Origin: Paraspadella gotoi
Lineage: Eukaryota; Animalia; Chaetognatha
Direction of reading: 5' to 3'
NCBI GenBank assembly: GCA_051294375.1
Contig: CM119267.1
Coordinates: forward strand, 18,330,992-18,394,991
Length of the DNA stretch: 64,000 bases
Shown: positions 11,555 to 47,066 of the stretch, piece by piece
How the letters are laid out: each line of letters begins with the position of its first letter
How positions within the stretch are numbered: position 1 is the stretch's first letter
Program-made: the position numbers and the translations under genes
Notes under the pieces: generated by a model
Told to the model about the DNA's origin: nothing
Databases searched by the model: none
What the model saw: the letters and a program-made list of their open reading frames with translations, nothing else

Positions 11555-14500
11555 ATATTATAAATGATAATTTTTCCTCTTCATAACTGGTGACCCCGAG
11601 TTTATAAATCTTTAAATATATAAATAGATATATGAACGACTTGAATGTGTTTATGGGAGTTAGGTCGAAAGAAAAGTGGGTACAATGCTAAAAAATAAAG
11701 ATTTTTGACTGACGAGATAAGCTTTCAAAAAATAGAGGTACGCACCAATATTTTGACCAAGGAGAAAACCACAGAATGAAAATCCTATGCTTTGAAACTT
11801 CCAATGATATAAACCTGAACCTTTCACTCTGATTTTGACGCTATCAAAATCAATTCCAAATACCGAATTTTGTTCAACCTAAGATGAAAAATCAAACATC
11901 AGTTCAAATGATAGCAATTACAAAGCAAAAAAAGTTACCAAAAAGTTACGATAGGTTTCCGTCAATTGTGAGACAAATTCAAAGTTGGTCCGATTATTTA
12001 CTTCATAGAAAAACAAAAGTTGGTGATCATTTTGACCAAAAGAATCTATATCATCTTCTAGTAATCCCAACCGAGACATGTCCTAAAATAAAACGCTCTG
12101 AAATAGCCCCAAAACACTTATTGGGAAGATTTTTTTTCATGTACAGCAATTGCGGGTCACCGTTGAAACAAGGATGTGTAAAGACATGAGCAAACTTAAT
12201 GTAATTTTAAATGATGGTCGGAATAGATTTATTTTATATATATGTATGTAATATCTATTTTAAAAATATCACTTGGAATTTGTAGTTAAAAATATATGCA
12301 CATACCTTATACGTAATTTAGTCGGCTATATCCAGGATTACTCCATTAAATATATTAATTCCTTAACCTTTTAAGATCTAAAAGCCTAATTAACATGAGA
12401 GAAACTAATCATATTTTTTAACCTAATTGCAAGTAATAAACTAGGAATTATGACAATTAAATCATTAATTATTTAGCTATTAATTGAACCACAAATAAAC
12501 ATGATCATTTACTAATGTGAAATAATAATATTAAACCTTTAAGGTAATAGAATAAAAATTTTTCAAAGCTTAATAAGAACACGACAATATGCAAATGAGA
12601 ATGAGGAACTCAATCTCATTTCAGACAATTCACAAATTAATCTGCTACACAAGCACCGAGTATATTTTTTCATTATGAGATAACTGTGCTATAAGCAAGA
12701 ACAATTTTGCCAAATATTTCGTCATCAGGGGAAAAAAGACAGCAACAGATTAAAAATAGGAAATAATCAAACTTACAATTTAAAATATATGACAAAATAT
12801 TTGGCAATATTGTTCTTGCTTTTACTATTAAGTTATAGCACAGTTATCTCATAATGAAAAACTACTTAATATCAACTAATTATTTTGCTTTCAAAAACTT
12901 ATTTGATAGTTTTATCAAATCGTCTTCCTCAGAGGTGTATTAAAATTACAGAAAAAAAAAAGAGAAAAATATTGTACAGGGAGTCGAATGGCTTTTTAAA
13001 GGTAAATGTTTTAATACCATCATTTTCTCTCTTATGGTCGAACATTTCAGTTGAAAAGGTTTCCAATCTTCATTCGAAGTTTGCTCCAAAACAATAGTCG
13101 AGACCTGTCAGCAAATCAAAAAATTGTCCTATATAATATATGAGACCTAAACAGCTAACAAAGTCTCTTACTTGCTGAATACAATCGGATTGCTCCTCTA
13201 AAAAACCCTTAGTTAAACCGTAGCAATCGCCACCAAGTTCAAAACATTTCTTTCGCGATGTATAGTTTTTACAACCTCTGAAGCATAAAATATGAATTCA
13301 AAATTATTGTATAAATTCCCATCTTTTCCCAAAAGTCATACGACGGTATCATAAAATTTTAAGAAAGCATATCTACGTGCGGCAGCAGAAACTGTTCTTT
13401 AAGCAAAGGCGTATGTAGCATGCATTCATGGAACAATTACTCTCCCTGTGTTCTAATATTTACTCGAGTAATTCAAAAGCGGAGACGACTGACCTGCACA
13501 AAGGACACTGAGTAGAGGCTACTTTAAAACTCGATTTAGCCGAATGGCCGTAATTTGGTCTGTGAAATTGGATAGCCTTGGACTTTTTGGGGGGTTTGGC
13601 GTTGTAAATATTAGTGGTCCTGGGAATGGCGCGACCTTCGTCCGATGGCGGACGATAATTTTCCGGAAGAGTCGCGAAAGGCGTGCTGTTTAGCGAACAG
13701 TGAAAAGCTAAAAAGAAACGTGTATTCGAGCCGAGTAGTTTCAACTTAAGTTTGCCTAAATTCGGGCAAAGAGACCACACGGTTTTCGCATTCCAGCTTA
13801 AGGTTCGTTAAGCATCCGTGCCTTACGATGAAGCTGTTGTGCCCCTCCTTAAACACATTTTGGAAAAAAAAAACATTACTGATTACTTAACCGGGATAAC
13901 GAATTTCGAAAACTTACCTGGCATTGCATCGGAAGTAAAGGAAAAACGGAGTAACCTGCTACTATTCCTTTTGCATATCTATTTTGAGTAATGTTGAAAG
14001 TGACGTCTTCTTCGAAAAAACGACCCAACTAAAACCCAAACTATGATGTAATTTTTTTTAATAAGAGCCTCATAAGCCAAACCCCCTCCCACCTTGGGTA
14101 AGGTAGTTATTCTCGCCCCATTAAACTTATTAAAAATATTTAAGTAAAAAACTGGCTGACTCTCCAATGCGGCAGCGAGTTGACTTTTTGGAATTAACAT
14201 TTGCTTCTGACTTTTTAGGATGAAACGCATAGTATCGCCAAGATCAGCAGTAATCGATTTCTTGTAAAGTACTATTCGCCTATTGAAATAAAAAAAATTA
14301 TCAAGAACAATGTTAGATGTGAACATACCCCTTCCTTAACCCACTTGACTCCGCACTCGAAGTACATAATGGCGGGAGGAGGCATCTCCGTTTTCGAGAC
14401 ATTAGGTTGCGGCGGTTTAATGTCAATGGTCAACTCTTCAGAGGCAAACCACCGTTCGGAAGTGAAATTTACGCCGTTTAACTTATTTAAGACCTCTTTA

Positions 14501-34127: not shown

Positions 34128-35206
34128 TCAGGGATAAAATTCTTTCTGTTTGTAATAAACATCCTTGATTCCGTTTCGCTTCTGATACGGATGGTAAGGG
34201 TCGTCGACGTAGTATTTAGGTTGCAGCATGTGAGCGCGGACCATTAGGTCGAGTCTCTTATTTTCCCCACTCGTGCACATTATGTGTTTCCGCATTGCCG
34301 CGCGGTGGGTTGGGGAGCGAAGGTACAACCGTTTATGACGGCCTGACGAGGAAAGAGTAAGAAACGGGTGCGTGACGCAGTAAAATGTTACACTTAGCAA
34401 TGGTAAATCGATTTACCTCCGACAGTCCGGATCCACATTCCGTTGTTGAGCCTTTTAAAAGAGATAAACACTTTTCGGACGCCGACCGATTCGCCATTAA
34501 GGAGATTGTAGCGAACGGGACCGTAAAATGAAGGAACAGGCACGGCCCAGTGGCGACAAATCAGCCACTCTCGAGTTCCGTACGAACCCGCCGTGCCGTG
34601 TCGGATCGGTTGCGTCGAGACAATCTAGGATGTGAAGCGTAAGTCTTAGGACTATTGGATTAAAGTCTACCATCCTTTAAGAGCGGTCATTAGAGCCGGA
34701 GGAAAGTAATTCGTCTACAAAACCCCAAAAAGGTCAGAGGTTAAAGCCCGTTGGCCGCCAAGCACTCAAGTTGGACGGGCGCTTAATCCGCCTGTAGCAG
34801 TGTACTATAGCCTGATCCGAAGCTCGGGAACTGCTTGATTATGAACGGGTCAGTCATTGATTTATTACTATAATTCTGTCCCTACAGGGCGTTTGTAGCT
34901 GTCCCGCCTTTCTCTAAAATATTTTATAATTCCCATCTCCCTTTATCGATTTCATTTCTCTTAAGTTTATCACGCCAAAAAAATTTATTCCTTTCTGTAG
35001 TCTGTTACAATTTCCCTCACCTTAATTTTCGGAAGCAAAAAACCGGGAGACCAAGAGGAGCCTATCGAAAAGGACGGCGTCTTCGATAGTCCGTCGTTAG
35101 ACCCCGTCGCCGCTACGAAAGTTCTCGTCAATGAATTCGTCAAAGGGAGACGGGAAGACGCCAGGGGCGACAAGAAGGATTTCAATGTTCTCAAAAACGA
35201 AGTCAT
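34128..35206 (-). CDS. MRPL35: Mitochondrial ribosomal protein bL35m
   Basis: Presequence exon, then FKRLNNGMWIRTVGG|RHKRLY...MC...KRLDLMV...YYVDDPYHPYQKR. Confidence 0.88.
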
Positions 35207-35468: not shown

Positions 35469-35949
35469 TCAACGCCCGCCCCTCCCACCACCCCGGGGAC
35501 CACCTCTCCTTGGCCCTCCTCGGCGCGGCCCTCCACGGCCGCGGCCACGTCCGGCTCGCCCCATGGGTCCGCCCCTGCCACCCCCTCGCCCGCCGCCCCT
35601 GCCCCCTCTTTTGGATTTGGGGCCGTCGTCAATGAGAAGAGTGTCGAGCGGAAGTGCGTCTGGCAGAATGTAGTAACGAATGTTGCTACCGCGAATAGAG
35701 AGAGTGTCCAAGTTCTGTCCAAGCAACAAAATCAAAGGAGATTCGTTATTCAAATTGTATATTTTCACCCCCTGACAGCGATTCGCCCACCTGTGGGTCT
35801 TTATTCTTGATGGTCATTTTAACGGCCTTGAGGTGTGTGTTCATTGCGACGTCGACGCCAGTGACGGTCCCATGGACCTGCGTTCCGTTCTTTAACTCGA
35901 TCGTCACCGTTTCGTGACTTAGCTTCATCAAGAATCGAACTAACTTCAT
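35469..35949 (-). CDS. SNRPD1: Small nuclear ribonucleoprotein Sm D1
   Basis: [22 protein letters not shown]...[23 protein letters not shown] and an RG tail. Two exons. Confidence 0.98.
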
Positions 35950-36125: not shown

Positions 36126-37089
36126 CTAATAACGATAGTACCAGTAACATATTACGACGACCATTAAAGTACTTAAAACCTCTAAAATTCTTGAGAGAAG
36201 CGAAGGAGGATTATTTTTTCGGTACTTTTTTTGCCGAATGTTCTTTAGGTATTCTTGAATCTTTTCATGGTCTCTGATAAGGGGTAATTATAAAAAATTA
36301 TTCTATAATGACGTTATTACCTTAAACAGAGTTTTACCCAGATGATTTCATTTCCTGCACGACGTGCTCATTGTAGTAGTTGTGAAAATCTTCAAGTCCT
36401 CTCTGATTTTCTCTCTTTACAAACACAGTTCGATTCGCTTTCACTCTTTTCCGATCGTGGGCGGCTTCCTGAAAGGTGCGCAAATCTTCGAAAGTGAGGT
36501 CCTCGTGGGGATGGGACTTTTTCGTCTTGGGCTTATAGTCACGAAACGACGAAATGCCGCGATCGTACTCGCGTCGCTTGTCTTCGTTTCCTAATATCTG
36601 GGGCGAGGAGAGGCAAGTGGCAAGTTTAAAACGGAGAAAATAATTAAAATTGCACACGAAGGTTTTAAGAAATGTGACAACCGAGAGTCAACAAGGATTA
36701 TTCCTTACAGTTAGTCCCCAACCTTTGTCAACCTGGTATGCTTTTGAAATATCGACGAACTTTTCCACTCCGACTGGGTCCTTGCAGACGTCGGGATGGT
36801 AGATTTTGGATAATCTAAAGTAGGCAGCTTTGATTTGATCCGGGTCGGCATTCGGCGACAAACCCAGCGCATCGTACAGTTCGCTCTGTCTGACGGCATA
36901 TGTCCGTCGGAAATCGGTCACCCACTTCGATCGACGACAGTCGCTCTTCAGTCCGAAGAGAGCGTGGCTAAAAGTTGCCGCACTAAACGCCCAACACGAC
37001 CCGTGACGTGAAGTACGGTACAATTTTAAAGAGCGACCCGTAAAAAGTAGCGACCCAGATGCCGTCGCAGATTTCGCAATAATCCACAT
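36126..37089 (-). CDS. DNAJC30: Mitochondrial J-domain protein with a C-terminal TM helix
   Basis: Presequence, LYDALG...IKAAYFRLSKIYHPD...ISKAYQ|ILGNEDKRREYDRG. The last exon ends in hydrophobic VLSTLMVVVICYWYYRY. Confidence 0.75.
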
Positions 37090-37192: not shown

Positions 37193-38506
37193 TCAGCAGT
37201 ATTTGAAGCCGGTATCAGCGAATATAACTCTTGGGTCGATCTTCTTCGCCTCCCGAGAAGAGTTGACGTTTGATCTCTCCAAGTTTGGTTTTCGAGTCCG
37301 TCCCTCGTGGTTTTCATTTTGATTCGGGGAAGATGCTAACATGGATTCTCCGACGAGCATCCGATCGATTCGCATAGAGGTCATCGCCACGCGCCTGCTC
37401 ACGTTCCGGTTTTCGTTGGTCGTAGTCCCCATCCCTAACAACATCACGCGGAGAAGGCTGCCCTCCATGCGACGCCAAGAGTGACAGGTCGACTCGAAAT
37501 CGTTGGGAAGAATTTCCTCGATGACCGACAGAATGGCTTCGAACATTTCGAAATAGAGCGAAGCCTCTTTGTGTCGCTTCTGAAGCGCTGCCCCGATCCG
37601 CAGCGCCAGCTGTTCCCACTTTTGAAGTGGACCCGCACCGTTTATTCGGGCTCGCAGGTTTTCGTAGGACATACCCGATTTTGACGAGATAGGTGCTTTC
37701 AGTGATCTCGAAGAACCAGGCGGCATTACATTTGACCCTACGGGATTCACTGAAAGTCCCGAAGCAGCAACGCCACTGGACGCGGGTTGTAGCAAAGCGC
37801 CACTCCGTGTACTCTCGCCGGGCTGCAGACCGACGCTCGACGAGGCGTTCTGACCGGCAGCCAATTTCGTCCTCTTAGGTTGGCTGGAATTAAAATTGTC
37901 CTGGAACCGGAAACCTTCCCTGACAGAAAAATTGCTCGTTTCGCTGGAAGAGTTGCAAGGGGATCCTTCCTCCGACCGAATAGCGTTTGTATTAGAATCA
38001 ATCCTCTTGTATTCAAACCCGAAATCTTCGAGACTTTTGAAAATCAGATCGATGATGACGAACAATCTCTTGGCCCTCTCGGGAGCCCATTCGTCTTGAC
38101 CATGATGCGTCACGTGATAATCCGCGTAGTAGTTGACCACCTTGTCCTCAAAGTCCGAATGGGCCTTGGCCCTTTTCCAAACACGTATGACGCTGTCAAC
38201 GTCCGCTCGAGTCATCGGCGATTGCGTCACGACTTCCTGCATGGCCATGAACCGAGGAAGATCGCGCTCGACCACGCGTGTCTCCTTAATTGACTGACGA
38301 GACTTTCTGGAACCCAAGGACAATCTATCGCTCGTAATCGTCGCGTAGGTTTCCAGGGTGGGACGACGCTGCCCATCCAGGCTACCCGCGTACGAAGGCA
38401 CGTTTTTTTGGTCCTCGGGAGAGGATTGTGAAGCGTAGCAACAGCATTTACCCGGGCCGTTGCTCATAAAGTTTCGTCCCATCGTTTTCGACTCGGTCGT
38501 TCCCAT
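37193..38506 (-). CDS. Intronless 437-aa acylation-motif protein with a split globin-like fold
   Basis: MGTTES start and a CCC motif. Globin A-, E-, F-, G- and H-like helices are separated by a Ser-rich insert. Confidence 0.7.
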   Translation of the reverse strand: MGTTESKTMGRNFMSNGPGKCCCYASQSSPEDQKNVPSYAGSLDGQRRPTLETYATITSDRLSLGSRKSRQSIKETRVVERDLPRFMAMQEVVTQSPMTRADVDSVIRVWKRAKAHSDFEDKVVNYYADYHVTHHGQDEWAPERAKRLFVIIDLIFKSLEDFGFEYKRIDSNTNAIRSEEGSPCNSSSETSNFSVREGFRFQDNFNSSQPKRTKLAAGQNASSSVGLQPGESTRSGALLQPASSGVAASGLSVNPVGSNVMPPGSSRSLKAPISSKSGMSYENLRARINGAGPLQKWEQLALRIGAALQKRHKEASLYFEMFEAILSVIEEILPNDFESTCHSWRRMEGSLLRVMLLGMGTTTNENRNVSRRVAMTSMRIDRMLVGESMLASSPNQNENHEGRTRKPNLERSNVNSSREAKKIDPRVIFADTGFKYC

Positions 38507-38804: not shown

Positions 38805-40080
38805 TCAGTACAATTTCACAGTAGGAATTTTTGTTTTTGAATCGATAACTGCCTCTTTGACTTCGTGCTTGGCATTGAACTTTCGTTTGAGACATCCGTG
38901 GTAGAAGCCCAATCCATAATTTCGAATGAATTTACTGACGCCCGGCACCCCGAGTTTCGGGTGACGCTCGAAAAATCTGTCACACCCGGCGACGAACCAG
39001 CCGTTAACTTGCGGACCTTTCGGGCCTGGATAGCATAGGTAACAACAAATTGGTTTAGAGAAGATTTTGAGTCACCTGAGCAGACCGTTGTTCTAACATG
39101 AAAAAACCTTGATAAGGACAAGTTTTAGCGAGACTTTTAGCCAACCGATAGATGATCTTTTTAACGATCTTTCGGGGCGCACTGGAAAAGACCAGGACTT
39201 CCTCGATGTTAAGGCAGGAAAAGTTTTCACGAATCCATTTGATGTTTTCGCAGGCGACGTACAAGGATCTGAAGATAATTCAGGGGGAAATAAAAAAAAC
39301 TCAAATATTGGAACCAACGGCAAGCACAGACCTGTGAGAGTGGCAAAAAGCCGAAAACTTAATGCGGCCATCGGGTTGATGATCAAAGACTAAAAGACCA
39401 AGAGCCTGGGCGCAGGTCGCGTGAAAGTAGACGTCGCAATCGTCATCGTCGCATCGGCGACAACATCCAATTCCTCGCTTAATATAAAATTTAAAAAATA
39501 TATTTTTTTTGCTCTCTAAACAGCCTTTCTCTAGGCTGCCACAGGCGTTCATTGCACAACAGTTTTACCTTATCACAAATTGAGCAAGTTCTTTGACTGT
39601 ATTTAGGAGTTATCACGCCTTCCATGGTTGCTGGTTTCTCATATATTACTTCTGGAATGTATAACGAACAGATAACGTGCGCCCACCCCCCCGAGGCGAC
39701 ACTAGCAAAAAACGGGAAAAACTTTTATTATGTTATCCCGCCCAATATTTATTTATGCAATTGTCGATTTACCTGGTGAAAATTCCCGATTTCATGGGAC
39801 ATAAGAGACAAGCTTCTTTTGCGGCTCCCGACCGACATTTCCGACAAATCCACGAGTCATTTCGGTGCTCTTTGTCGGGCGCCTCGCCGCAGCAAGAGCC
39901 GTGTACAACAACCCCACAGTTTCCGCAAGTCTTTAAGGGTTCCTCGGCACTGTGAAGTGAACCCATTTCAGAACAGACGCTACACGGCGTCGGCTTCGGT
40001 AACAGTTCCGTCTCTGAGTCTTCAATGTACGGGGACGATGTATGGAGACCGTTTTGAGTTAAGGCGGCGAGGGGTTTCAT
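38805..40080 (-). CDS. PHD-zinc knuckle-PHD (PZP) protein of the AF10/BRPF/JADE/PHF14 type
   Basis: CSVC...CGNCGVVVHGSC...WICRKC, CLLCPMKSG, WAHVICSLYIPEV, CSIC, FHATCAQ, FCHSH. Extra 5' exons are possible at about 41396-41600. Confidence 0.85.
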
Positions 40081-40434
40081 GTTTTCACAATTTTCTACGA
40101 GAGAAATTTTTAAAGAAAAACTAGTTGTCCACTTTGATACGTCGTAATCGACTTTTTTAAAATTGTATTGTATTTATGTCACAACGATTTATTTTTAAAA
40201 TTATTTTTTATTATTATTTATTTATTATTATTATTATTTGTTATTATTATTATTATTATTCCTTTAGCTAATTTTTCCAAGTCTACTTATTTATCTTTGT
40301 TGTACATTGCCAAATGTATCGATTTCTCTCTCTCTCCCTCAGTCACATTTTCACCATTTCACAAAACTTACTCCTTCCCTGTCTTTACCTTTACCTGTTT
40401 TCACATCTGACCTTTACTCAATTCTTTGTTGGAA

Positions 40435-40474
<40 letters not shown>

Positions 40475-41208
40475 CCTAACTTATGTTAGGGGTAGCCCCA
40501 CTCAATGGGGTGCGGCAAAAATTTGAAATGATTACATGCTCAAATGAAAATTTATACATTTTTAAGTATACTTTCAATGGACAAAAAAATTCTTATATGG
40601 CTTTATACCCAAATAATTATAATTATTTAATATTTATTTATAGATAGGAAAGGCCAATTTTTTTTTTAATATTGAATTTTAACACCAGATTCAGATAGCT
40701 CATAAAAAGTTGTCTGCACAAAGTATTATTCTTTTTTAAATATTTTCATGATAATCGAGTCAAAAATAAGAAAAACCATGAAAAATCGTCATCATCATCT
40801 TTCGAAGATTTTATCAGTTTTTTATATTTTCACTTTGTGTATATACTTTCAATTTCGTTTCGTTTCGAATCTAGGAAGAAAAACAATTCTTATTTGTTTT
40901 GTTTCAACGAATTTTATTTGATTTTATTGTTTTTCTCCCTATATTTTTCACTCAAAAAACGTAGGAATTTTTAAAAGCTGTAATTATATTTCATGTTTAA
41001 TTTTTTTTGCTCTATCAGAATCCATCAAAAAAATTTAAGTTTTCAAAAAATTATTTTTATAATGCAAAAAAATATAAGTAATATTTAATGTATTAATCAA
41101 GACGTATAATGTAAATTTTTAGACAACTAAAAAAACTAAAATAGTCGAAATTTTATATTATCTATTGAGTTGGTCCCTACTTATGTCTCTAAAAAAATTG
41201 TCAATACC

Positions 41209-41254
41209 AAACGCTGATGAAGACTCGCAAAAACAGAGTCGAAACATGTCCGTC
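41209..41254 (+). ncRNA. Minimal type I hammerhead ribozyme, intact core
   Basis: acg-CTGATGA-A-GACTC/GAGTC-GAAA-CATG-TC-cgt. Confidence 0.82.
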
Positions 41255-41784
41255 TTGTTAATTGTTAATTCAAAATTAAATCGTTGTAAAATCTAACAAA
41301 ATAAACCTTTGTTTTTCGCTAATCCCAAAAAACAACGAAAAGAGAGAAAATAACACAAAATGTATTCATGTCATAAAATATTGATTCCATTCGCACCTTT
41401 ATAAAATTCAAAATGCCCCGCTTTCAAGTCTATAATCACATGCAATATATCGTTCCCAGTCCATGCACTGATCTATGTCGGATCCTTACCAACGCTTTTC
41501 CATGTGCATGACGCAAAAATTGCGTGGCCGCCAGATTCCAAACCTTACCGTCAATTAAGAATCAGCCAGCCTCTAACTTATCGACGCAAACCTAAAATCA
41601 TAACCGGTCACATGCAATAGAACAAGTTTGAGCAAACAATGTCGGATCTGCCTACGATAATTAGCGGTAATCAGCTAATCAGATCATCACAGACGAATGA
41701 AACCCTGAAACAGAGATGATAAATGACGATAATTCTTTCAATTTGTGTTCATAACAGATCGTACCATACCAAACCAATGGCTGC

Positions 41785-45822: not shown

Positions 45823-47066
45823 TTAGAGTTTTTTGCTAAAGGGGGACGGAGAAACGGACATCATTTTTTTTGCATAATTTTTGCGCGTCAAAAATCCCCG
45901 AAATTTCCCGTCATTGTCAGGGTCAGGAGTGTTCATCGCACGATATAAGCTCTCCAGGGGAATCCACGATATGGGGCTTTCCGGCCAAGTGTCTAATAGC
46001 AACACATAATATCTCCGGCGTTGTCCTTCGTCGCCACAAGATCGTTTGGCAACCGCCACGATGACGCTGAAATGGCCGCAAAATGGAGGTTGATCCAAAC
46101 TTTTCATATCGTAGTTCACGATCAAGGATCCATTTTCACTGATCTGTGAGACCAAAGCCTCCATGAACATGTGTTCCGAAAATGCAGGGACACTATTTGG
46201 TTCGTTACGACAGAGATTGTATTTCGCTCCCAAGAGTGTACAGACTTGGTCCAGGGTCATGCCATTTGGAATTATATCTACTACCTCCTGAGAGACTTGA
46301 GGAAGCAAATCTTCTTCGCTCATTTCCCCCATATATTTCAGTTCATGGTCCCCTATTTTTTGCGACAACATTGCCGCGTGAGCTTGTGAGCTCACCATAC
46401 CACAGGTCGAACGACCGATTTGTTTTTTGAAGCACGAACCCCAGTCGGATTTAGATGCAACTATAATCTCGCTGTTTGAGGAGAATCGTAATCACAAATG
46501 CTTCAGATAATCAGTTAACGATTACTATCTTAAAAATAAAATTGATTCTCACTGTTGTCCGTCCTCACCCTCGTCTCAATGGCTGAGCAGGCTAAATAAT
46601 ATAGTTTCAACCTGGGTATCCCGGTTCTGTCTTAAATGTGACGGAGACGGTTTAAATATGCTAGTCACAGGAGGCGGTCACTGAGGGTCCCTAGCCCCTA
46701 CGCCAGTTGGTGAGATACCCTGTGCCCCGAGTAACACAGGCAATCCTCCCATTGCCATAGCTCTGTTTTGCGAGGAGTTGTGTCATCCTATCAAAATACA
46801 TTAATACTGCAACTGCGATTACAAGAAAGGAATTATAAGACTGATTAAAAGCCGTTAAATATTATGTCCACCAGCTGAGATTAAGTAACGTAATAAGTAA
46901 CATATGTCATTTGTGATTTTGACTCGAAATAATTTGCTGTTTCCTGAGCTTCCACGAAACTTGAAGGAACCACATTTAGGCCGAAATCCTCAGTACAATT
47001 TTTCAAGACACCCCTGGCCTCTAGCCTTTTTAAATTATTCACCACAACTTTTAAATATTCGGCCAT
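45823..47066 (-). CDS. Phytochelatin synthase-like protein (catalytic domain only)
   Basis: Last exon (from about 46472) has FKKQIGRSTCG (Cys), GMTLDQV, GHFS (His), LLDT (Asp) and WIPLESLYRAMNTPD...RGFL. The 5' exon joins are uncertain. Confidence 0.82.

Follow-up and report, generated by a model that had tools for sequence, protein, structure and literature searches.

A single-exon open reading frame predicted to encode a split, membrane-anchored globin-fold protein without conserved histidines

Can a globin-like domain that is cut in two by a long serine-rich stretch, and that appears to have lost the histidines of the heme pocket, still close into a globin fold, and what would such a protein do at a membrane? 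The question is raised by P0001, a 437-amino-acid globin-fold protein without conserved histidines that is encoded by a single-exon open reading frame (ORF) on the minus strand (38506-37193) of the 64-kb stretch of DNA analyzed here (the window). A first-pass annotation had described this locus from its letters as a split, membrane-anchored globin-like protein, and the ORF and all of the motifs that it quoted were found at this position. Five public sequencing runs from three studies (X1, X4, X7, X8, and X9) cover the ORF, and among the rows listed for these runs there is no letter change, gap, or joint within it; three of the five (X1, X4, and X7) are marked as possible sources of the window DNA. 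Run X9 is taken as RNA by guess only, and the guess is supported by a contig that skips eight CT..AC introns left unskipped in the DNA runs. This contig (6344 nt) splices those introns in neighbor genes while running unbroken from 39024 to 36733. Because it crosses the whole ORF unbroken, the gene is intronless and the insert that parts the globin domain is kept. Splicing out of the insert, which the annotation had raised as a possibility to check, is thus not what the X9 RNA contig contains, and a minor spliced form of the transcript may exist, given that contigs drop rare variants. The annotation had also set an intronless gene among intron-rich neighbors; the first part stands, but the neighbors have one to four introns each in the covered stretch, which is moderate rather than rich. 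In runs X10 and X11, from other organisms in the same RNA study, the ORF was not covered to any meaningful extent at 80% likeness, which proves nothing. The minus strand also has, within the globin ORF (37317-37874), a second stop-free frame of 186 codons, which lacks an ATG and is probably a by-product of codon use.

Few relatives of P0001 were found. A full HMMER scan of 1.84 billion representative proteins returned one match, P0002 (E 1.1e-4), whose cluster has two members; the second member, P0003, is full length (390 amino acids), collinear with P0001, and 28% identical to it. A word-indexed search with P0001 found no homologue, a profile of the two sequences found only P0002 among near-length proteins and none among shorter proteins, and metagenome contigs held no further relative of P0001. 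Conservation is read from two sequences because only one homologue cluster was found. Given this caveat, the two proteins have a common layout that consists of a myristoylation-type start, a cysteine pair, helices A-B-E, an insert, and helices F-G-H. Identity between them is 34% in helices A to E, 13% in the insert, 28% in helices F to H, 36% in the helix after H, and 62% (8 of 13) in the last 13 residues. Local alignment scores agree with this pattern, with z values against 500 shuffles of 15.5 for the N-terminal half, 15.8 for the C-terminal half, -1.4 for the insert, and 7.2 for the last 40 residues. The position of the insert in the EF corner is kept and its sequence is not: P0001 has 133 serine-rich residues there (Ser makes up 20% of them but 13% of P0001 overall), and P0003 has 105 unrelated, lysine-rich residues. 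The annotated insert of about 130 Ser-rich residues is borne out by these figures; it covers residues 163-295 by sequence and some 113 residues (166-278) by low model confidence. P0002 departs from P0003 exactly at the boundary between the insert and helix F and ends six residues on. This departure may mark an intron, an alternative splice, or an assembly error in the homologue, and an intron at that boundary, if true, would bear on the retrogene question taken up below.

Comparisons by sequence give weak evidence that P0001 is a globin. No globin match (PF00042) was found in Pfam up to an E value of 10 for P0001, either of its halves, or P0003, and no globin came up when the PDB sequences were searched with all of P0001, with the two-sequence profile, or with the N-terminal half. 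With the C-terminal half alone, human cytoglobin was the top natural match (E 0.17), behind one designed protein. A hidden Markov model (HMM) of 30 bacterial globins gave 4.5 and 2.3 bits against the insert-free forms, scores that were each reached by 1 of 300 shuffles. By hhalign, the score was 22.7, against a mean of 12.1 (SD, 2.2; maximum, 19.2) for 100 column shuffles, at a probability of 9%. In a language-model atlas, nematode globin clusters ranked first for both proteins (0.80-0.86), which serves as a lead only.

Structure prediction was more telling once P0003 was included. AlphaFold2 on the single full-length P0001 sequence was uninformative (pLDDT 39.6), as was the Foldseek search with that model. 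With residues 90-390 and P0003 as the sole other row, the core helices had a block pLDDT of about 76-94, and residues 166-278 stayed below 50. MAFFT alignments with bacterial globins misplaced helices A and B when P0003 was included and helices B and E when it was left out. Because the helices were misplaced, neither alignment was used for folding, and the fold test consists of the two homologues only. The AlphaFold and Foldseek check that the annotation had proposed came out divided: the core is confident and globins make up 24 of the 45 listed Foldseek rows for the two-sequence model, but nothing was found at E <= 0.001.

In a VIA-align comparison with 48,161 chains, the leaders were insect, annelid, and mollusc globins together with cytoglobin (Z 11.0; 10.6; 10.3). 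The top chain was 1x46_A, with 133 of 150 residues aligned at an rmsd of 3.3 and a Z of 11.0, a value that may reflect a common arrangement, as may any Z below about 13 for a helical bundle. Cytoglobin aligned over 131 residues (Z 10.3; rmsd 3.1). The aligned ranges span both halves; globins or globin-fold sensors fill rows 1 to 44, and Z is down to 5.6 at the first row that is clearly unrelated. A generic helical-bundle likeness is disfavored because of this gap in Z to the unrelated rows and because the whole domain is covered.

We also gave the two halves to ESMFold2 as separate chains. The score was 0.84, against 0.02 for the best control; the runs agreed in at least 87% of contacts, and the partner pLDDT was at least 84. 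The mark used for this score is reached by 51 of 78 solved complexes and by 2 of 108 mismatched pairs (39 of 65 and 2 of 126 for eukaryotes), and a two-chain pass can stem from likeness to solved globins. The surest contacts between the chains were Val106-Trp344, Val109/Ala113-Ile329, Val123-Ile325/Val328, and Ile155/Ser158-Trp297/Leu300. In our numbering, these read as A8-H8, A11/A15-G16, B9-G12/G15, and E-F, which places A on H, B on G, and E on F; such packing is canonical for globins. The helix order is collinear (A-B-E-insert-F-G-H), and in the model B joins E via five residues with no C or D helix, in keeping with the short CD region noted in the first-pass annotation. Taken together, the assembly of the halves in the two-chain model and the globins at the head of the structure search favor the split 3/3 globin fold that had been predicted, and the models suggest that the two halves close into one 3/3 globin domain with the insert looped out at the EF corner.

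Next to the fold stands the matter of heme. The annotation had read Arg at the distal E7 position and Leu at the proximal F8 position, and both assignments hold in the two homologues. In an ungapped match of the F-G region to human cytoglobin, Leu308 falls on His113, the proximal heme ligand of cytoglobin, and His312 falls on His117. In the alignment that includes P0003, Leu308 and the Leu of P0003 share a column with a His in 30 of 30 bacterial globins; this alignment, in which A and B are misplaced, also has Trp344 invariant in all 32 rows. The hhalign register agrees in setting Leu308 at F8. E7 is Arg in both proteins in our register (Arg144 in P0001), and there is no His or Gln in helix E of P0001 (residues 141-162). 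P0001 has seven His residues, none of which is shared with P0003; P0003 has only two, neither of them in its F-H half. The further His residues of P0001 in the B/CD region (116, 131, 134, and 135) are likewise not conserved, and the junction of B and E, a 5-residue loop in the model, has no aromatic residue common to both homologues. Because Leu and Arg are predicted at F8 and E7, no His is shared, and the C and D helices are absent from the model, members of the family most likely cannot bind heme through the usual ligands.

Unusual ligation is a separate matter. P0001 could still be a heme protein that uses His312 (shifted by one turn), Tyr318, or a His of the B/CD region and that senses redox state or a gas at the membrane, in the manner of nematode GLB-26. 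The annotation had allowed that the His of its QKRH motif might ligate heme normally, and the alignments are split on this point. When P0003 is left out, His312 reaches F8 by way of two compensating 4-residue gaps, and the HMM alignment of the C-terminal half likewise sets it there by 4-residue gaps; the three alignments described above instead leave His312 off F8 and place Leu on it. P0003 has Ser in place of His312 and no His at all in its F-H half, and the model lacks a C/D corner. Tyr318 is conserved, the nearest language-model clusters are nematode globins (0.85-0.86; again a lead only), and Daphnia HbL domains, which may or may not bind heme, are reported to have Tyr at F8 (PMC7457136, in part). 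Weighing these points, we consider a heme protein with unusual ligation improbable for the family; P0001 may make private use of His312 for heme.

Both P0001 and P0003 match a PROSITE-like N-terminal myristoylation pattern, and both are predicted to be modified there. Cysteines follow at positions 21 to 23 in P0001 and at 16, 21, and 22 in P0003. No transmembrane stretch was found in either protein, the top 19-residue hydropathy values being 1.2 and 1.6. Several clades of globins commonly have dual acylation (10.1101/789214, in part), and globin X is palmitoylated at Cys3 (PMC7475203, in part). The likeness to the globin X anchor is loose because globin X uses Cys3 and the cysteines here are at 21-23. 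Of the globin X-type anchor that the annotation had proposed, the conserved myristoylation-type start with a Cys pair stands, but the cysteines lie far from Gly2 and the sole sequence-level globin match is cytoglobin.

The best-conserved segment is the terminal 13-mer, and inside it lies the one RVxF match that each protein has, a feature that the earlier annotation had passed over. We used the definition [KR]-x(0,1)-[VIL]-x-[FW] (from PMC10731240, in part). When the tail was shuffled 20,000 times, an RVxF match arose in the last 15 residues in about 1.5% of cases and anywhere in 9%. Basic residues come before the match, and the spacing around it resembles that of Leishmania PNUTS for the acidic residue at +2 (PMC10731240, in part) and that of Phactr1 for the hydrophobic strand at +5 to +8 (PMC7599070, in part). 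Against docking to protein phosphatase 1 (PP1) are the Pro two residues before the Val and the fact that RVxF matches are short and common. No Arg motif follows the RVxF because the chain ends there, and disorder of the tail is read from the low-confidence full-length model and composition only. With a motif match in two sequences, the tail is perhaps a candidate PP1-docking string. The features of the ORF and its immediate neighbors are listed in Table 1.

Table 1. Positions in the window of predicted P0001 features and of the flanking genes (helix E numbering is our own assignment)
Feature	Positions	Strand	Basis
Residues 1-7, predicted N-myristoylation-type start (Gly2, Ser6)	38486..38506	-	Pattern match in P0001 and P0003
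Cys21-23, candidate palmitoylation cluster; Cys22-Cys23 conserved	38438..38446	-	P0003 alignment
Helix A, ~99-114; Trp110 conserved; Val106 packs on helix H Trp344 in model	38165..38212	-	
Helix B, 119-135, then 5-residue loop; no separate C/D helix in model	38102..38152	-	
Helix E, 141-162 (to 178 in model); E7 = Arg144 (38075-38077), E11 = Leu148, both conserved	38021..38086	-	
EF insert, 163-295, predicted disordered 166-278; short helix 281-291 before F	37622..38020	-	
Helix F, 296-310; F8 = Leu308 (37583-37585), conserved	37577..37621	-	
His312 of QKRH, FG loop; aligned with cytoglobin His117; Ser in P0003	37571..37573	-	
Helix G, 316-332; G5 = Tyr318, conserved	37511..37561	-	
Helix H, 334-359; Trp344 invariant in both homologues and 30 bacterial globins	37430..37507	-	
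Extra helix after H, 363-385; window with 8/13 identities to P0003	37352..37420	-	Model and alignment
C-terminal 13 residues, 425-437, 8/13 identical in P0003; RVxF match 426-429; candidate PP1-docking motif	37196..37234	-	
Upstream neighbor: spliced PHD-finger/zf-HC5HC2H gene, 327 aa; 5' exon near 41399	38808..41600 (upper end approximate)	-	
Downstream neighbor: spliced DnaJ-domain gene, 254 aa, 103 nt past globin stop	36126..37089	-	

The annotation had further inferred that the gene was retroposed. The gene is intronless, but we found no A-tract in the 103-nt downstream spacer and no flanking direct repeat beyond chance-level 10- to 11-mers, so retroposition has no positive sign here; old retrogenes lose their poly(A) and target-site duplication marks. 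There is no second copy of P0001 in the 64-kb window, and other single frames of 300-410 codons are present in it. The gene lies in a tight array on one strand that consists of a PHD-finger gene (301 nt ahead of the globin start), the globin gene, a DnaJ gene, an Sm-D1-like gene, and one more gene. A single spliced RNA contig extends over at least four neighbor genes, the spacers are 103-301 nt long, and none of them has an AATAAA; the contig fits a possible long polycistronic array. The neighbors are housekeeping genes and give no functional hint. Almost all of the recognizable genes are on the minus strand. Over the whole window, 223 of the 244 open frames of at least 75 amino acids were scanned, and a Pfam match was obtained for 28 of 114 on the minus strand and for 1 of 109, of low complexity, on the plus strand.

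Several other features of the window were recorded. The gene after Sm-D1 (34397-35206, minus strand) is spliced and has a mitochondrial-type leader; its single exons have no Pfam match, and it presumably resembles mitochondrial ribosomal protein L35. A second Sm-D1-like copy (35804-35949) differs at 16 of 146 nt; it occurs in both X9 (RNA) and X7 (DNA), where its contigs continue unlike the window, and is probably a paralogue from another genomic site. One 222-codon frame at 45826-46491 on the minus strand encodes a phytochelatin synthase-like domain (E 2.4e-12). At 40200-41000, the first intron of the PHD gene contains a high-copy repeat with a summed depth of up to about 100,000, against 36 nearby (X1). 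An exon at 13463-13807 on the minus strand matches the CatSper beta C-terminal domain (E 2.3e-9) and is the one frame with a CatSper-family match among 61 scanned in the stretch from 10.9 to 19.7 kb. The genes of the window suggest an animal source. The TTTCAG-type acceptor is the intron-end consensus of nematodes. A reading of P0001 as a nematode GLB gene is weakened by the eight intron ends, which have no shared acceptor of that type, and by the CatSper beta exon; the CatSper gene set is reported lost in nematodes (PMC5553355, in part). The language-model atlas, with its nematode globin clusters, points the other way.

Judging from sequence and model, we think it fairly likely that P0001 is an acylated, heme-free pseudo-globin adaptor at the inner face of the membrane. 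Myristate at Gly2 and palmitate at Cys21-23 would anchor the protein to the membrane, and the loss of the F8 His, the E7 His, and the C/D corner would abolish axial heme binding. The retained globin domain would serve either as a rigid platform or as the pocket of a small ligand, anionic or lipid, which Arg144 and Arg147, conserved at the former distal site, may hold. The most speculative step, and one that we put forward only tentatively and with the balance tilting against it, is that the RVxF string recruits PP1 to the membrane and that the Ser-rich insert acts as a phospho-regulated spacer. The full extension of this idea, which we regard as unlikely, is that animals have a conserved family of heme-free globins, anchored to the membrane, that serve as PP1 targeting subunits; in these, the emptied domain would be a lipid- or anion-sensing switch, the E-F hinge would carry a long, variable regulatory insert, and the RVxF would bring PP1 to the membrane.

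A heme-free ligand sensor in the manner of RsbR and the Bacillus sporulation sensors overlaps with the adaptor. In it, a fatty acid, bilin, or anion would bind in the former heme pocket and thereby shift the insert along with the E-F hinge. In favor of this reading, the two homologues have the same pocket residues (Arg144, Arg147, Leu148, Ile151, Ala307, Leu308, and Tyr318), non-heme globins bind fatty acid or bilin via Arg or Tyr (PMC8717448, in part), and the fold matches include RsbR-N (Z 8.4; rmsd 3.3; 123 aligned). The model is nevertheless matched better by heme globins than by RsbR, and P0001 has no output domain besides the tail motif, so that we give a pure sensor little probability, about that of unusual heme ligation.

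We think it very unlikely that P0001 is a globin copy in decay or near neutrality that rides passively on a read-through transcript. Its key residues are lost, few relatives were found, and the RNA evidence is one contig that spans the neighbors as well; yet the two proteins, at 28% identity, have retained an open frame along with fold, anchor, and tail despite a replaced insert, and the third-position GC content of the folded halves (0.64-0.70) is at or above that of the neighbors (0.54-0.67). A convergent helical bundle unrelated to globins, which would account for the lack of a significant sequence or Foldseek match and for a VIA-align Z below about 13, is just as remote in view of the whole-domain cover of globin targets across both halves and the ranking filled by globins, the globin-type A-H, B-G, and E-F contacts, the invariant Trp344, and cytoglobin as the top natural match of the C-terminal half.

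With the acylated, heme-free adaptor as the preferred reading, P0001 can be set beside known systems. Globin X, globin X-like proteins, and C. elegans GLB-26, a myristoylated redox globin (PMC3520999), likewise have a single globin domain, an N-terminal extension, and myristoylation and candidate palmitoylation sites (PMC7475203, 10.1101/789214, PMC3520999). The arthropod GbX and GbXL proteins, in contrast, keep the CD1 Phe, E7 His, and F8 His (PMC7457136), where P0001 has Arg and Leu at E7 and F8. Globin X also differs in that its palmitoylated Cys is Cys3 and not at 21-23 and in that P0001 has an EF insert of more than 100 residues that splits the domain.

The string at the end of P0001 resembles those of the RVxF-phi-phi PP1 interactors PNUTS, Phactr1, and spinophilin: an RVxF preceded by basic residues lies in a disordered tail, position +2 is acidic, and a hydrophobic strand covers +5 to +8 (as far as the excerpts of the papers cited above go). 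Unlike in those interactors, it ends the chain, without a later Arg or Trp motif, and the likeness is a motif match only. No globin-fold PP1 subunit is described in the portions of the literature examined.

Androglobin is an animal globin whose domain is also split in two (PMC8717448, in part), but its domain is circularly permuted within a calpain-containing chimera of about 1500 amino acids, whereas P0001 is collinear and 437 amino acids long and has no calpain match in Pfam. Globin folds that lack the two histidines and work as sensor or structural modules are found in RsbR-N, the Bacillus sporulation sensor domains, photoglobin, and the syNOS pseudoglobin (PMC7475203, PMC8717448, and PMC12922734, in part). 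The non-heme families are described from bacteria and algae (PMC8717448 and PMC12922734, in part). In contrast to P0001, these are prokaryotic domains of multidomain systems, for which the excerpts mention neither an acyl anchor nor an EF insert, and the P0001 model matches heme globins better.

Animal globins without these histidines are already in print, as scattered cases. In the ostracod Puriana HbL2, Daphnia HbL, hexapod androglobin, and C. elegans T19C4.5, the proximal His is replaced too, by Val, Tyr, or Asn (PMC7457136 and PMC2228317, in part); Puriana HbL2 is changed at CD1, E7, and F8 (PMC7457136, in part), and the T19C4.5 orthologue in C. briggsae has the His (PMC2228317, in part). 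For none of these is an EF insert of this size described in the excerpts, and the longest interhelical extension in C. elegans globins is 40 amino acids, in GH (PMC2228317, in part). In the literature surveyed, mostly at the level of titles and abstracts, no acylated, His-less globin with a long EF insert is described; a sequence of this kind may be present in the supplementary globin alignments of PMC7457136 or 10.1101/789214. By the same partial sources, the His-less cases are single or species-level changes or degenerate domains of chimeric proteins, whereas P0001 and P0003 share the His-less state, the insert, the anchor, and the tail at 28% identity. The position of that insert suggests that the EF corner tolerates additions of more than 100 residues. 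An acylated globin kept without its histidines across such a gap in identity points to a selected, heme-independent job in animals and bears on the roles that membrane-bound globins may have besides gas and redox chemistry.
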